From positions 3,122-67,121 of the forward strand of contig CAMEXD010000005.1 in assembly GCA_945947035.1 (NCBI GenBank): 64,000 nt of DNA. The letters run 5' to 3'. Shown here one piece after another: positions 12,079-41,871 of the stretch. Position numbers and translations under genes: made by a program. The stretch is from an uncultured Mycoplasma sp. (GTDB lineage: Bacteria > Bacillota_I > Bacilli_A > RF39 > UBA660). Below the pieces are notes generated by a model. The model was not told the DNA's origin. It saw nothing but the letters and a program-made list of their open reading frames with translations, and made no database searches. The number at the start of each line of letters is the position of its first letter. Position 1 is the stretch's first letter.

Positions 12079-12960
12079 TTATTTATCATAATTAATAGTT
12101 TCAAGTATTCTATTTAAATCTTGATCATTAGCAAAATTAATAATAAGTTTATTATTAGTAAGTTTTACTTTTGTACCTAAATAATCAGATAATTCTTTTT
12201 CTAAGTCTATATATTCTCTTGATTTTTGTTTTTGCTCTACTTTATGTCTTCTTGGAATATCAGAATTTCTTGTTAATTCTTCAAGTTCTCTTACACTTAA
12301 ATTTTCATTTTCAATCTTATTTGTCAATTCAATTATCTTATTTTCATCATCTAATTTTGATAAGACTCTTGCGTGTCCCATAGTTAATTTATTTTCAGAA
12401 ATTGATTTTTTAACAACATCAGGTAGTGTTAAAAGACCTAAAAGATTAGTGATATGGCTTCTACTTTTATTAACTCTTTTAGCAACTTGTTCTTGAGTTA
12501 AGTTAAGCTTATACATAAGATTTTTATAAGCATTTGCTTCTTCAATAACATTTAAATTTTCTCTTTGAAGATTTTCTAAAATTGCTATTTCCATCATTTC
12601 TTCATCAGTAAAGTTTCTAATAATCGCAGGTATTGTTTCTTTTCCTGCTCTTATTGAAGCACGATATCTTCTTTCTCCTGCAACGATGTCATAACCTTTA
12701 ATACTTTTTTTAACAATAATTGGTTGAAATACACCATGTTCTTTTATTGATTCAGCAAGTTCTTCTAAAGCATCCTCATCAAATACTTTTCTTGGTTGAT
12801 ATGGGTTTGGTCTTAAATCTTTGATTGGAAGTTCTTTAACTTCATCAATACGTGCTGTTTCCATAATTTTTTCTTCTAAGTTGCTATAACTTACATCTTC
12901 AATATTAAATAATTCTTCAAGCCCTCTTCCTAGAGCTTTTCTTTTACTCTGTTCTTGCAT
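12079..12960 (-). CDS. parB: chromosome partitioning protein ParB/Spo0J
   Basis: N-terminal KALGRGLEELF, ParB box GERRYRAS, and a ParB-type HTH segment NKSRSHITNLLGLLTLP...TMGHARVL. Confidence 0.93.
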   Translation of the reverse strand: MQEQSKRKALGRGLEELFNIEDVSYSNLEEKIMETARIDEVKELPIKDLRPNPYQPRKVFDEDALEELAESIKEHGVFQPIIVKKSIKGYDIVAGERRYRASIRAGKETIPAIIRNFTDEEMMEIAILENLQRENLNVIEEANAYKNLMYKLNLTQEQVAKRVNKSRSHITNLLGLLTLPDVVKKSISENKLTMGHARVLSKLDDENKIIELTNKIENENLSVRELEELTRNSDIPRRHKVEQKQKSREYIDLEKELSDYLGTKVKLTNNKLIINFANDQDLNRILETINYDK

Positions 12961-13735
12961 TTTTTTCTATCACCTCTTTGGCTAAATTTAAATAAGCTTC
13001 AGAACCTCTACTTTTTGGATCGTAAACAATTATTGGTTTACCATGAGATGGAGCTTCTGTTAGTCTTATTAATCTTGGTATTATAGTATTGTATACTTTA
13101 TCTTTAAAGTATTTTCTTATATCCTCAACTACTTCAATACTCATGTTAGTTCTTGCATCAAACATTGTAAGAAGTACTCCTTCAATTGAAAGATTTGGAT
13201 TAAGATTTTCTCTTGTATACATAATTGCTTTTAAAAGTTGTGTAATACCTTCAAGAGCAAAAAACTCACATTGTACTGGAATAATAACAGAATCACTTGA
13301 AGTTAAAGCATTTGTTGTAATAATTCCAAGTGCAGGTGGACAATCAATAATAATAAAATCATAGTCATCTTTTATCTTATCAATATGAATTTTTAATTGT
13401 TCAGCTTGAAGATAACTAGAATCATTTCTACTGTTGTCTCTTATTTCTATATCAATACCTGCTAAATTAATATTAGCGGGTAAAACATATAAATTTTTAT
13501 ATTTTGTTTTAATAATAACATCTTCAATTTCACTAGTATTATTTAAAACATTATAAATACTTTTATCAATATCACCTTTATTGATACCAATTCCTGTTGT
13601 AGCATTACATTGTGGATCTAAATCTACTAATAATACTTTTTTATTTAATATAGCTAGTGAAGCAGCAAGATTAATACTTGTTGTTGTTTTGCCTACTCCA
13701 CCTTTTTGATTAATCAATGATATAACTTTTCCCAT
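12944..13735 (-). CDS. parA: chromosome partitioning ATPase ParA/Soj
   Basis: Deviant Walker A motif NQKGGVGKTTTSINLA. Overlaps the parB start. Confidence 0.95.
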   Translation of the reverse strand: MGKVISLINQKGGVGKTTTSINLAASLAILNKKVLLVDLDPQCNATTGIGINKGDIDKSIYNVLNNTSEIEDVIIKTKYKNLYVLPANINLAGIDIEIRDNSRNDSSYLQAEQLKIHIDKIKDDYDFIIIDCPPALGIITTNALTSSDSVIIPVQCEFFALEGITQLLKAIMYTRENLNPNLSIEGVLLTMFDARTNMSIEVVEDIRKYFKDKVYNTIIPRLIRLTEAPSHGKPIIVYDPKSRGSEAYLNLAKEVIEKNARTE

Positions 13736-13842: not shown

Positions 13843-15078
13843 TTATCCCACATTTTTCTTATTTTTATCAATTTTTATTACAATTTGGTAAACGTTATCA
13901 AAGTCAAATTCTTCAGTTTCTATATTAAATCCAAATTTTTCAGTATTTTGAATAGCTTGTCTAAAATTATTAATAGCAAATCTCATATCGTAAATATCGT
14001 TATTATTAATAGTATTTACACTAGGTGTTTCAGTTACTACTTCAGGAATAGGTTGTTCTACTTTTTCACTATTATTTAATAAAGATTCTATCTTATTAAA
14101 TGCAGTATAAGCATTTTGATCACTATTATTACTTGTAAATTCATATTTTGGACCTTCATATTTAGGAACAGGTGCAACACTTTCTTCAACATGTTTTAAT
14201 TCATTAGATGTTGGAATATATGTGTTTTCTAAAATATCCTTATAAGGATCTTTTGGTAAATCTAAATCTTCATTTTGTTTTTGTTCAACTTGTTCAATAT
14301 CATCTTTTCTTAAATCAGCAAAAATATTTTTATTTATTGGTTTTTTTTCTGGTTCCTGATTAACAGGTGCAACAACTTTTGGTTCTACTACTATTTCTTT
14401 TACTTCATTTACATTTGGCACTTCAACATTTTTTGTTGGAACTTCTTCTTCTGGATATGTATTAGTATTTACTTTGCCAGTTAACATAGCAATCTCATCA
14501 TCAAGTTGCTTTACAGTCATTCTTTGAAGAATAATTTTTTCCAATAATTCTTTTTGTTTTACAGGATCTTCCATATTAAGTAAACTTCTAGCATGTCTTT
14601 CTGATATTTTTTCATGTAAAAGCGCATCTTGTACTTCAGGAATAAGATTTAAAAGTCTAAGTTTATTAGCAATGGCAGATTGTGATTTACCTAATGTTTT
14701 AGCAAGTTCTTCTTGAGTTAAATTATCTAATTTTAAAATTGTTTGATAGGTTCTTGCTTCTTCAATAGAAGTTAAATTCTTTCTCTGTAAATTTTCTAAA
14801 AGTGCAACTTTAGCAGCTTCTTTATCATCTATATTTCTAACAATCGCTGGAATAGTTGTTTTACCTGCAAGTTGTGAAGCACGAAATCTTCTTTCGCCTG
14901 CAACAATTTCGTATTTATCTCCTACTTTTCTAACAATAATAGGTTGAATAACACCATGTTCTTTAATTGATGTTGATAACTCTTGTAAATCAATATCATC
15001 AAACTTTTCACGTGGTTGAAATCTATTTGGTAGAACATCCGCTAATGATAGTTCAAATACTTCCTTTTCTAAGTTCAT
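13843..15078 (-). CDS. noc: Noc-type ParB paralogue (nucleoid occlusion protein) with a long internal low-complexity insert
   Basis: VLPNRFQPR and GERRFRAS boxes. The HTH reads LGKSQSAIANKLRLL...ISERHARSL, which matches B. subtilis Noc rather than Spo0J. The C-terminus FNIETEEFDFDNVYQIVIKI is Noc-like. About 165 aa of P/E/V/N-rich insert lies at ~13986-14481. An in-frame TGA sits just upstream of the ATG. Confidence 0.85.
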   Translation of the reverse strand: MNLEKEVFELSLADVLPNRFQPREKFDDIDLQELSTSIKEHGVIQPIIVRKVGDKYEIVAGERRFRASQLAGKTTIPAIVRNIDDKEAAKVALLENLQRKNLTSIEEARTYQTILKLDNLTQEELAKTLGKSQSAIANKLRLLNLIPEVQDALLHEKISERHARSLLNMEDPVKQKELLEKIILQRMTVKQLDDEIAMLTGKVNTNTYPEEEVPTKNVEVPNVNEVKEIVVEPKVVAPVNQEPEKKPINKNIFADLRKDDIEQVEQKQNEDLDLPKDPYKDILENTYIPTSNELKHVEESVAPVPKYEGPKYEFTSNNSDQNAYTAFNKIESLLNNSEKVEQPIPEVVTETPSVNTINNNDIYDMRFAINNFRQAIQNTEKFGFNIETEEFDFDNVYQIVIKIDKNKKNVG

Positions 15079-15679
15079 AAAAAATACCCTCTTTCAATTC
15101 TTTTTACTCTTAGTACATTAACCTATATTATATTATAAAATAAAAAAAAAATTTTTACAATGTTTTTTTTATAATTTATACTATTATTTAAAAGTTTTTT
15201 TATTGCACCTAAATTATCAAAACATCTATAAAAATTACCAAATTTAACTAGTACTACACAATGTTTATATTTTAGATTAAGAATTCTAGAATATTCTTTC
15301 AACTTCATAATAGACCTATACCTTACTACCAAAAAATCTGTTACTTCGACAATTTTTATAAAAAATTGCCGAAGATTATTTTTATTTCCAAAATAACCCC
15401 ATTTTTTTCTAAATCTTTTACTGTTAATTTTCGTTTGTTTATCTTTATACCAGCTTTAATTATTTTTTGAATATACACCTAAAAATATGCAAAAAATTTA
15501 TTAACCATAAATTTTTTGGCTCTGTTGTCAAGTACTTTACAAAAAAAACTTCAAAAATTAAATTTATTAAAAATTTAATTTTTGAAGTATCTTCTTACTT
15601 TTTATTCTTTTTATTTTACTTTATTTATATCATAAATCTTTTGGGTTTTTTAGTTCTTTACAAATGAATAGACGAAAGT

Positions 15680-39777: not shown

Positions 39778-39793
39778 TGTTCCACGTGGAACA
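39778..39793. promoter_or_regulatory. parS: parS site 1 (perfect palindrome TGTTCCACGTGGAACA)
   Basis: Exact 16-mer, extended to the palindrome ACAATGTTCCACGTGGAACATTGT. Lies 11 nt after the gyrA stop. Confidence 0.85.
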
Positions 39794-39801
39794 TTGTATC
39801 T

Positions 39802-39850
39802 GGTCAATTGATGTATTAAAAACAAATCAATTGACCTTTATTTTTTTATT
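39802..39850 (+). terminator. gyrA intrinsic terminator
   Basis: GGTCAATTGAT-N13-ATCAATTGACC followed by TTTATTTTTTTATT. Confidence 0.8.
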
Positions 39851-39888
39851 TAATAAATAATATATAATGAAAAGTCAATCAAACATAA

Positions 39889-39904
39889 TGTTCCACGTGG
39901 AACA
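39889..39904. promoter_or_regulatory. parS: parS site 2
   Basis: Exact TGTTCCACGTGGAACA within the 20-bp palindrome AATGTTCCACGTGGAACATT. Confidence 0.85.
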
Positions 39905-39955
39905 TTATGTTATTATTTTAATTTAATATATAAGACAATTATAATTATGTGTCAA

Positions 39956-39971
39956 TGTTCCACGTGGAACA
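39956..39971. promoter_or_regulatory. parS: parS site 3
   Basis: Exact 16-mer. The extended palindrome is GTCAATGTTCCACGTGGAACATTGAC. Confidence 0.85.
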
Positions 39972-40061
39972 TTGACATTAAACTATTATTTATTAAGCTA
40001 TATTAATGTAATTTATTAGATTTATATATATAAAAATCAATTTAATGTTATTAAAGTATAA

Positions 40062-40077
40062 TGTTCCACGTGGAACA
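40062..40077. promoter_or_regulatory. parS: parS site 4
   Basis: Exact 16-mer within AATGTTCCACGTGGAACATT. Confidence 0.85.
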
Positions 40078-40097
40078 TTGAAATAAATATATTTTAT

Positions 40098-40126
40098 TTG
40101 ACAAATAATTAATAATAATATAGAAT
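40098..40126 (+). promoter_or_regulatory. sigma-A-type promoter of ffs
   Basis: TTGACA (40098-40103), a 17-nt spacer, then TAGAAT (40121-40126). The predicted start is about 40132-40134. Confidence 0.6.
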
Positions 40127-40132
40127 TTATAT

Positions 40133-40212
40133 TGTGCAACACAAATGTTAGAACCAGGTCAGAATCGGAAGATAGCAGCCTTAATAACCCCTTTGTGTGT
40201 GCACTTTTTTTT
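40133..40212 (+). ncRNA. ffs: small (4.5S-like, ~72 nt) signal recognition particle RNA with T-run
   Basis: Domain IV core ACCAGGUCAGAAUC-GGAA-GAUAGCAGCC matches the conserved SRP RNA motif (E. coli ACCAGGUCAGGUCCGGAAGGAAGCAGCC). The closing helix is GUGCAACACAAA / UUUGUGUGUGCAC, followed by T8. Confidence 0.85.
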
Positions 40213-40221
40213 GAGGTAATT

Positions 40222-40629
40222 ATGGAAGAAAAATACGTTGAAAAATTATTATTAAAATGCAAAAAAGCAATAAAAACAGGTAATATTCCTATAAGTGCAT
40301 TAATTGTAAAAAATAATAAAATTATATCAATTGCTTATAATAAAAAAGAAACTAGTAATATTTCACTAGATCATGCAGAAATTATTGCAATAAAAAAAGC
40401 TTGTAAAAAATTAAAGACTTGGAGATTAGATGATTGTGTATTATATACAACCTTAAAACCATGCAAAATGTGTGAAGGTGCAATAATTGAATCTAGAATA
40501 AAAAAAGTATATTATTTATTAGAATCAAATTACTATAAAAATAATTATGATATATCTTATGAAAAATTAAAATTAAAAAATAATTATGATAAAATATTAA
40601 AAGATTTTTTTGCTAATATTAGAAAGTGA
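40222..40629 (+). CDS. tadA: tRNA-specific adenosine deaminase TadA
   Basis: CDA zinc motifs HAEIIAI and PCKMCEGAI. The start was set at MEEKYVE behind GAGGTAAT. The listed longer ORF (from 40132) runs through ffs. Confidence 0.9.
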   Translation: MEEKYVEKLLLKCKKAIKTGNIPISALIVKNNKIISIAYNKKETSNISLDHAEIIAIKKACKKLKTWRLDDCVLYTTLKPCKMCEGAIIESRIKKVYYLLESNYYKNNYDISYEKLKLKNNYDKILKDFFANIRK

Positions 40630-40632
40630 CAA

Positions 40633-40648
40633 TGTTCCACGTGGAACA
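40633..40648. promoter_or_regulatory. parS: parS site 5
   Basis: Exact TGTTCCACGTGGAACA, 4 nt after the tadA stop. Confidence 0.85.
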
Positions 40649-40722: not shown

Positions 40723-40738
40723 TATTTCCCGGGAAATA
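40723..40738. promoter_or_regulatory. NBS-like site 1 (TATTTCCCGGGAAATA)
   Basis: Exact match to the palindromic Noc-binding site (core ATTTCCCGGGAAAT). Sits within the 22-bp palindrome AATTATTTCCCGGGAAATAATT. Confidence 0.75.
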
Positions 40739-41024
40739 ATTTTTGCTATATTAAAATGCTTTAATATATAAAATAATGATTTTAAAAAAATAAAATTTTA
40801 ATAGTTAATATTAACATATCAATATAAAATAATAATATGTTATTTTAAAATTATTTGTTTATATTTTTAAATTTTTTGCTATGTTAACAATAATGTTATT
40901 TTAGATGTTATAGGTATTATAAATTCTAATTTATTAATATTTATAATTTAAAAACAATTAACTAAATGCTAACAAGTTCTAAAAAATGTGTTGTCAATAC
41001 AAAAAAGTGGACAAAATCGCCAAT

Positions 41025-41040
41025 TATTTCCCGGGAAATA
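41025..41040. promoter_or_regulatory. NBS-like site 2
   Basis: Exact TATTTCCCGGGAAATA, 302 bp after site 1. Confidence 0.75.
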
Positions 41041-41300
41041 ATTTTTATTATAAATTGATTATATTTTAATTAATGCTTTTTTATATTATTATTGTTAATA
41101 AAAATGTACAATACTATATAAACATTAAAATAATAATTACAGCTTTAGATCAAAATTAAACTGCCTATTATTTATTCAATAAAATTAACATTGATTTTTG
41201 CTATATTAACTATAGTTAATTTTAAAAAAGCAATTAACCAATTGCTAATAAATTCTAAAAAATGTATTGACAATACAAAAAAGTGGAGAAAATTGCCAAT

Positions 41301-41316
41301 TATTTCCCGGGAAATA
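41301..41316. promoter_or_regulatory. NBS-like site 3
   Basis: Exact TATTTCCCGGGAAATA, 276 bp after site 2. Confidence 0.75.
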
Positions 41317-41560
41317 ATTTTTGCTGGGAAAATATATAATAAATATTAAAAAATATTAATAACAATAATTAATGTATATATACAAAATGGTTATTAATTA
41401 ATATTACAAATATTAATTGTTATTGATGTATTATAAACTATCTTATTTACTAAAATATTGTTATAAAATGAAGCTTTATAATTTTAAAATTAATTAGCTA
41501 AATGTTAACAGATTCTAAAAAATGTATTGACAATACAAAAAAGTGGAGAAAATCGCCAAT

Positions 41561-41576
41561 TATTTCCCGGGAAATA
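41561..41576. promoter_or_regulatory. NBS-like site 4
   Basis: Exact TATTTCCCGGGAAATA, 260 bp after site 3. Confidence 0.75.
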
Positions 41577-41855
41577 ATTTTTGCTAGGGAAATATTTTAA
41601 TATTTAAAGTATTGGTTTGAAAAAATTGATTTTATTTAATAGTTAATATCAATATAAAATAATAATATTTTATTTTAAAATTATTTGTTTATATTCTTAA
41701 ATATTTTATTATGTTAACAATAATGATATTTTAGACATTATACATATTATAAATTCTAAATTATTGATATTTATAAATCAAAATTTAATTAACCAAATGT
41801 TAATATGTTCTAAAAAATGTATTGACAATACAAAAAAGTGGAGAAAATTGCCAAT

Positions 41856-41871
41856 TATTTCCCGGGAAATA
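41856..41871. promoter_or_regulatory. NBS-like site 5
   Basis: Exact TATTTCCCGGGAAATA, 295 bp after site 4 and about 100 bp upstream of dnaX. Confidence 0.75.

Follow-up and report, generated by a model that had tools for sequence, protein, structure and literature searches.

Can a Noc protein do without its N-terminal membrane helix, and if it can, does another part of the chain take the place of the helix? The question is raised by a noc-like gene (13843..15078, minus strand) in the window, by which we mean the whole stretch of 64,000 nucleotides analysed here (contig CAMEXD010000005.1 of an uncultured Mycoplasma sp., GTDB lineage UBA660; assembly GCA_945947035.1, positions 3,122 to 67,121). 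Noc is a ParB-family, cytidine triphosphate (CTP)-dependent DNA clamp that reads the Noc-binding site (NBS) palindrome. Judged by its sequence, the product of the gene is a Noc by descent and by its DNA-reading head. It lacks two defining Noc features that were tested for, the N-terminal membrane helix and dispersed NBS sites, and so is not a plain member of the group; it probably works differently from a textbook Noc. The account that we consider likely is of a Noc-type clamp without the N-terminal helix and with a long, disordered spacer that bears short islands, in which the islands replace the contact made by the helix and the protein has its role in the origin region.

The DNA-reading head and its binding sites

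The protein has 411 residues and an ATG start, its length in the preliminary description of the locus being borne out by the list of open reading frames. It begins with a ParB/Srx-type CTPase domain (residues 6-98; 14785..15063, minus strand; Pfam PF02195, ParB_N, E 4.9e-36) containing the PNRFQPR, GERRFRA and ENLQR boxes, all of which are invariant across an alignment of 32 sequences (A1). A DNA-binding domain of the helix-turn-helix (HTH) type follows (residues 100-197; 14488..14781, minus strand; Pfam PF17762, HTH_ParB, E 1.8e-30). The Pfam search found nothing in residues 200-411. A Noc-type C-terminal (dimerisation) domain at residues 359-405 (13864..14004, minus strand) was instead picked up by the NCBIfam model TIGR04285 (nucleoid_noc), as a second stretch of 26 bits at model positions 173-255, where the conserved C-terminal FNIETEEFDFDNVYQIVIKI segment falls. 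AlphaFold2 models these 47 residues as a helix and two strands, with a predicted local distance difference test score (pLDDT) of about 80, and their identity within the genus is 77-98%.

Comparison with known proteins pointed to Noc throughout. Against TIGR04285 the window protein scored 294.1 bits in two stretches (model positions 1-204 and 173-255), and the adjacent ParB scored 240 bits. The best sequence matches in the PDB were the Noc proteins of Geobacillus thermoleovorans and Bacillus subtilis (7NG0, 7NFU and 7OL9; E 1.7e-59 to 7.7e-53, with 7NG0 and 7NFU at 1.7e-59), ahead of the Spo0J structure 6SDK (E 3.6e-50). Identity to the known Noc structures over residues 5-200 was 49-53%. By Foldseek, the top fold match was 7NFU, at 53% identity, and the DNA-binding domain superposed on the Noc-NBS complex 6Y93 with a template modelling (TM) score of 0.86-0.89. 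In a tree built from the N-terminal 190 residues, ParB split off with a support of 100/100 and the long forms related to the window protein formed one clade (100/99) among canonical Nocs.

Two results weigh against this assignment. The score of 294 bits lies under the curated TIGR04285 cut-off of 315 bits, as do those of the family members (all 263-289 bits), and the backbone of the tree has weak support (80/66). For the window protein, the shortfall arises because the insert splits the match.

What the protein shares with the Nocs of B. subtilis and G. thermoleovorans (7NFU, 7NG0, 7OL9, 6Y93) is easily stated: the CTPase domain with its GERRFRA and ENLQR boxes, the Q and R of the HTH together with one permissive lysine, the C-terminal domain, the palindrome itself, which is identical in the window's genome, and a gene position upstream of soj and spo0J. 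Here soj/parA (12944..13735, minus strand; Pfam AAA_31, CbiA and ParA families) lies immediately downstream of the noc-like gene and is followed by parB/spo0J (12079..12960, minus strand; Pfam ParB_N, HTH_ParB and ParB_C). With this chromosomal ParB the window protein has in common the fold, the CTP clamp boxes, the C-terminal dimerisation domain and the placing of its sites, since NBS and parS occur in the same locus. It differs in lacking the LG(R/K)GL ParA-contact peptide, which ParB carries as LGRGL, in having Q and R where ParB has R and G, and in belonging to a separate clade.

In Caulobacter ParB numbering, NBS specificity needs no more than Q173, R201 and one lysine, which may be at 179 or at 184; Q173 contacts adenine 1 and R201 contacts cytosine 6 (Jalal et al. 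2020, PMC7383237). At the four specificity positions, the window protein carries Q133, K139, N144 and R161, within an HTH segment that reads GKSQSAIANKLRLLNL...ISERHARSL. The neighbouring ParB (NKSRSHITNLLGLLTL...TMGHARVL) has the parS-type residues R-L-T-G at the same positions. The preliminary description had called the first segment Noc-type and the second ParB-type, and both calls stand: Q-K-N-R fits the published rule, five perfect NBS palindromes are present in the genome, and no ParB-type residues were found at these positions of the window protein.

The most divergent long form (L031, G010:C27) has E-K-S-G in place of Q-K-N-R (GKDESIINNKLKLLS...ISEGHAK), and no perfect NBS was found in its genome, which is 81% complete. 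This protein may have changed or lost its DNA target.

The five perfect NBS palindromes (ATTTCCCGGGAAAT) start at 40724, 41026, 41302, 41562 and 41857 (40724..41870). A scan of the whole assembly (1.17 Mb, 24.7% GC) returned exactly these five, where about 0.002 are expected by chance, and only one other site with at most two mismatches. They sit in repeats of about 280 bp between tadA and dnaX, all within 1.15 kb, and are the presumed loading sites of the Noc-like protein. Directly before them are five perfect parS sites (TGTTCCACGTGGAACA, at 39778, 39889, 39956, 40062 and 40633; 39778..40648), which adjoin the NBS array, lie downstream of gyrA and flank tadA and the gene for the small bacterial signal recognition particle (SRP) RNA. 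The latter (40123..40221, plus strand; Rfam RF00169, 59.9 bits) is immediately upstream of tadA and inside the parS cluster.

This arrangement is shared across the GTDB family. Perfect NBS sites, usually one to five per genome, were found in 52 of 60 and 30 of 34 genomes of the family, with zero matches in a reversed control, and were rare in other families of the class. NBS and parS were interleaved directly beside gyrA in all 12 family genomes fetched, with dnaX on the other side in 10 of the 12 stretches; the other two stop at a contig end. Some family genomes (L096, L097) have strictly alternating parS/NBS tandem units of 66 or 80 bp.

B. subtilis reportedly has about 70 NBS sites scattered over the chromosome arms. 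In the window's genome, in contrast, the sites are few and clustered beside parS near gyrA and dnaX, and no spread over the chromosome was seen, either here, where the genome is 71% complete, or in the 12 relatives, all of which show the same clustering. Counting against a confinement to the origin, more NBS sites may lie in the unassembled part of the genome.

An N-terminus without the membrane helix

In the current model of Noc, an N-terminal amphipathic helix is released by CTP binding (Adams et al. 2015, PMC4331003; Jalal et al. 2021, PMC8429893). The helix was present in all Noc homologues examined by Adams et al., who found the N-delta-10 protein to be non-functional and the native helix to be replaceable by a heterologous amphipathic helix (PMC4331003). 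B. subtilis Noc without residues 1-10 keeps CTP binding and N-domain engagement, and G. thermoleovorans Noc without residues 1-26 was crystallised in the engaged state; helices alpha1 (membrane-targeting) and alpha2 both lie within the region missing from this N-delta-26 construct (PMC8429893).

When the window protein was aligned with full-length G. thermoleovorans Noc (7NFU), its residue 5 paired with residue 26, so that its start corresponds to about residue 22-26 of a canonical Noc. It begins about where the crystallised N-delta-26 construct begins, and is therefore without helices alpha1 and alpha2. The absence of an N-terminal membrane helix, proposed in the preliminary description, is upheld by this alignment together with stop codons upstream of the gene, both here and in relatives. 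No N-terminal amphipathic helix was found in the window protein or anywhere in its GTDB family. Canonical Nocs from other families of the same class begin with MNIFSGNKDK, MFNIFSRDD, MFNIFSRDDSRN, MNLFTSRDK, MGIFFSNRER or MGLFDFLGTKN, all of which correspond to the amphipathic motif of Adams et al. (2015). The window protein thus differs from the Nocs of B. subtilis and G. thermoleovorans in lacking an element that is required for function there (PMC4331003).

The loss goes together with length throughout the family. Two samples of the same GTDB family were examined, and every genome had the long form (24 of 24 in one, 34 of 34 in the other), with open frames of 326-622 aa; a large protein database supplied more than 100 long homologues of 259-580 aa. 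In these long forms, the contiguous match to TIGR04285 covers only the model from position 1 to about 205. In other families, nearly all Nocs match the whole model and have lengths of 252-310 aa. The Nocs that lack the helix and have a long spacer form a monophyletic subfamily, which occurs only in a single GTDB family of uncultured gut Bacilli whose genomes measure about 1 Mb. In the tree rooted on ParB, helix-bearing lineages lie on both sides of the long-form clade, on a weakly supported backbone, and the likeliest history is one helix loss and one tether expansion in the ancestor of the family. In the literature searched we came across no account of Nocs that have a long spacer or lack the helix, and a 2025 survey of the ParB-CTPase fold says that Noc keeps the canonical architecture.

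Six Nocs of normal length from two other families (f5 and f23; L069, L075 and L077-L080) have about 10-15 residues before the N-terminal box, no amphipathic motif and no insert. Their TIGR04285 scores exceed the cut-off, and their specificity residues are Q-K-x-R.

A different departure was seen in a further family (f24; L100 G103:C11, L101 G078:C41, L102 G128:C12), where the tether is normal and a long C-terminal tail follows the dimerisation domain. The tail of L100 has about 400 acidic residues and ends in GFWNLFK, while its N-terminus reads MALFNRKDK; L101 and L102 have tails of about 100 residues and no obvious N-terminal helix. All three genomes contain perfect NBS sites. These acidic tails make disordered Noc appendages a recurring theme in uncultured gut Bacilli.

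The spacer and its islands

The extra length of the window protein lies in a hypervariable, acidic spacer that is predicted to be disordered (residues 201-358, 158 aa; 14005..14478, minus strand). It is rich in E (14.6%), V (12%), N (12%), K (10%) and P (10%), and has a net charge of -14. In an AlphaFold2 model built on the 32-sequence alignment, pLDDT was about 90 for residues 1-200 and mostly below 50 for the spacer, rising again in residues 359-405. Composition and pLDDT together agree with the Pro/Glu/Val/Asn-rich disordered insert before a conserved C-terminal domain that had been described from the letters of the sequence. With one common definition applied, the spacer is 81-358 aa long (median 169) in the family, and 3-12 aa in four canonical Nocs.

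The spacer varies much faster than the domains on either side of it. Across increasingly distant relatives, identity to the window protein falls from 98% to 64% in the N-terminal 200 residues and from 98% to 38% in the C-terminal domain, and from 84% to about 30% in the spacer, with up to 105 gap columns. DNA tandem repeats were considered as a source of the insert and ruled out, none being found in the stretch that encodes it. In one case (L007/L046, G003:C34) noc is split within the spacer into frames of 326 and 91 aa; the gene may be frameshifted or a pseudogene, or the low-complexity sequence may have been assembled wrongly.

Short helices are predicted within the spacer at residues 252-258, 280-285, 291-294 and 326-335. 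The first of these falls in island A, I-N-K-N-I-F-A-D-L-R-K-D (residues 248-259; 14302..14337, minus strand), which is the only strongly conserved spacer stretch in the window's clade. Its consensus is N-I-F-x-x-L-R (residues 251-257), with instances such as KSNIFDMLRQES, TENIFDRLRIQEE, DENIFNKLRVD, DRNIFNRLRQDE and NRHIFDGLRRDE, and I252 is conserved in at least 90% of 32 sequences that are otherwise unalignable there. The island resembles the canonical Noc N-terminus, in which M-N-I-F is likewise followed by basic and acidic residues. A position-specific scoring matrix (PSSM) made from 18 canonical Noc N-termini only, and run on the spacers of 36 sequences against 2000 shuffles of each, picked out island A in 15 of the 19 sequences from the window's clade (p<0.05), all 19 being relatives of one another.

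A second candidate, island B, is Y-T-A-F-N-K-I-E-S-L-L-N-N-S (residues 324-337; 14068..14109, minus strand), and contains the predicted helix at 326-335. A Gibbs sampler given one spacer per genus recovered a shared motif, D-[IV]-[ND]-K-[IL]-x-E-x-A, with a score of 314 against 268 +/- 4.6 for shuffled spacers (z about 10). The window counterpart of this motif may be AFNKIESLL, in the helix of island B. A second round with the first motif masked gave z of about 4.4, with heterogeneous instances. By eye, a K/R-F-F motif also recurs in the spacers of six genera (L018, L019, L022, L026, L027 and L031).

With its conserved islands in a hypervariable background, the spacer behaves as would a disordered region in which short, clade-specific linear motifs are embedded. 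The alternative that the insert is a strain-specific expansion with no conservation is contradicted by its presence across the family and by the islands. We infer that the NIFxxLR island is a concrete candidate for the contact, with membrane or partner, that the preliminary description had thought the insert might provide; its identification as a membrane helix is a hypothesis.

Possible roles and the start of the reading frame

We propose that the Noc-like protein would load at the origin-side NBS array, close as a CTP clamp and spread locally alongside ParB, with the long spacer serving as a flexible arm. Short helical islands on this arm (NIFxxLR in the window's clade) would then make the contact that is made by the N-terminal helix in Bacillus. 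The membrane and a partner protein are about equally plausible as the target of the islands, and neither reaches an even chance. If the target is the membrane, the N-terminal autoinhibitory switch would have ceased to gate the contact. Given loading on the origin side, local spreading and a flexible arm, the protein would be an organiser or tether of the origin region rather than a chromosome-wide division block.

The genomic setting gives such a role some context. MinD (TIGR01968, E<=1e-40) was not found in any of 41 family genomes, 34 of which are at least 90% complete, and the family seems to be without a Min system. In its boldest and more tentative form, the proposal is that the Noc membrane helix has moved from the CTP-gated N-terminus into the disordered arm, or has been re-invented there, and that with a composite parS-NBS centromere and no Min system the protein ties the origin to the membrane beside ParB. 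RicO of Staphylococcus aureus offers a working model for such a tie: it binds origin-proximal sites, and an amphipathic helix away from its DNA-binding domain ties origins to the membrane (bioRxiv 10.64898/2026.03.06.710092). The analogy is functional only, as the folds are unrelated and the RicO helix is C-terminal and experimentally shown, whereas that of the window Noc would be internal and is hypothetical.

A number of results count against the islands as substitutes for the helix. The PSSM of canonical N-termini gave essentially no significant spacer match in 17 other genera; overall, 15 of the 36 sequences reached p<0.05 and all of these are close relatives. A family-wide relocated helix was therefore dropped, and the claim is restricted to the window's clade, the only one in which the PSSM was significant. 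A loose F-F expression, [FILM]F..[FLIM], chosen post hoc, matched in 9 of the 17 genera against 7.8 expected, which is not significant. The hydrophobic moment of island A (0.41-0.54) shows it to be amphipathic but does not set it apart from the rest of the spacer, and on average its hydrophobicity is negative. Because helix-less Nocs of normal length exist in two other families, helix loss is not unique to the long forms and needs no replacement by itself. Finally, the host organisms of long-form Noc are uncultured.

It is also possible, if doubtful, that the islands are docking peptides for a partner protein (FtsZ, FtsA, SepF, Soj and SMC being candidates), through which Noc would regulate division or segregation from the origin region by direct contact. 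Linear binding motifs usually show up as short conserved helices within disordered, hypervariable sequence, and island A is acidic on balance, with only three hydrophobic residues. Without MinD, the family would find another route of FtsZ control useful. Both FtsA and FtsZ are encoded in the genome, and the C-terminal peptide of its FtsZ, EIDIPRFLQ, is loosely like the island, with I, L and a basic or polar residue equally spaced. This likeness is weak, however, as the F lies two positions off. That island A mimics the C-terminal peptide of FtsZ was considered on its own and set aside, NIFADLRK and the FtsZ end EIDIPRFLQHKNF being only weakly alike, and is kept solely as part of this docking explanation. 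The partners named are only candidates, and the likeness of the island to canonical Noc membrane helices speaks for the membrane instead. In architecture, FtsZ and the window Noc do follow the same logic, in that a variable disordered linker presents a short contact peptide. FtsZ, with its core, disordered C-terminal linker and conserved C-terminal peptide, is an unrelated protein, and in the window Noc the peptide is internal, with a folded dimerisation domain after it.

Less probably, the spacer is for the most part a neutral, expandable linker that makes no specific contacts, the islands being residual structure and the protein a membrane-independent, NBS-bound, ParB-like clamp. The range of spacer lengths and the near impossibility of aligning spacers between genera would fit this, as would the Nocs of normal length that have neither helix nor insert and the one gene that is split within its spacer. 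We consider it unlikely, however, since 80-360 extra residues are kept in all 58 sampled members despite genomes of about 1 Mb, and since the islands are far more conserved than their flanks (I252 and the shared motif above). The independent gain in family f24 of a long acidic tail that ends in a hydrophobic motif likewise suggests selection.

The long forms are of interest as a natural experiment. They make up a large clade, sampled here in at least 58 genomes and represented by hundreds of metagenomic proteins, in which the DNA-reading head of Noc, the NBS in its exact sequence and the C-terminal domain are all retained. The clade has at the same time discarded a helix described as universal in the Noc homologues examined and gained a disordered arm with short conserved motifs. 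It thereby bears on whether membrane tethering is essential to Noc, on whether the tether can sit elsewhere in the protein, and on the role of Noc in Min-less bacteria of reduced genome whose sites are confined to the origin beside parS. A relocated helix, if true, would, with the composite centromere and the missing Min system, change Noc from a chromosome-wide inhibitor of division to a tether that joins origin and membrane.

All of the above takes the gene to start where it was called. The start lies exactly 14 residues before VLPNRFQPR, as stated in the preliminary description, and the in-frame stop reported just upstream was located five codons before the ATG (TGA, 15094..15096, minus strand), where it rules out an N-terminal extension. 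The frame between this TGA and the ATG was translated and contains no start codon; an AAGAGGG ribosome-binding site occupies 15093-15087. Beyond the TGA, the next in-frame stop is a TAA eight codons further upstream, again with no start codon between them. A conserved start 10-22 residues ahead of the PNRFQPR box (P17) was found in 36 relatives. In these, TAA, TAG or TGA stands immediately before the open frame, 1-32 codons upstream of the conserved ATG, and the residues just before the ATG are a translated ribosome-binding site. Within the window's genus the start is 16 residues ahead of PNRFQPR and the proteins begin MNLEKEVFE; 79 of 87 scored homologues likewise start (MNLEKE) 16 aa before the box. 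An annotation artefact, in which an alternative start, a different genetic code or an error in sequencing hides a longer protein with a normal N-terminal membrane helix, would gain from the fact that some Mollicutes-type Bacilli read TGA as Trp, but is extremely improbable given the TAA met on reading through the TGA, the TAA or TAG at the equivalent place in relatives (which together rule out an alternative start or code), the ribosome-binding site encoded directly upstream, and the more than 100 independently called homologues that begin at MNLEKE.

Upstream of the gene, a promoter-like TTGTAA-17-TATAAT was found by a consensus scan at 15132..15160 (minus strand), about 54 nt from the noc start. 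It is weak evidence for a promoter, as the number of such matches in the region equals the shuffled expectation. A 69-aa open reading frame lies directly upstream of noc (15123-15332, minus strand). It was rejected as a split-off Noc N-terminus, since it contains no Noc-like peptide; it has a faint likeness to MutS domain I (MutS_I, E 0.025; ...VKFGNFYRCFDNLGA...) and may be a gene relic in an AT-rich gap of about 600 bp.

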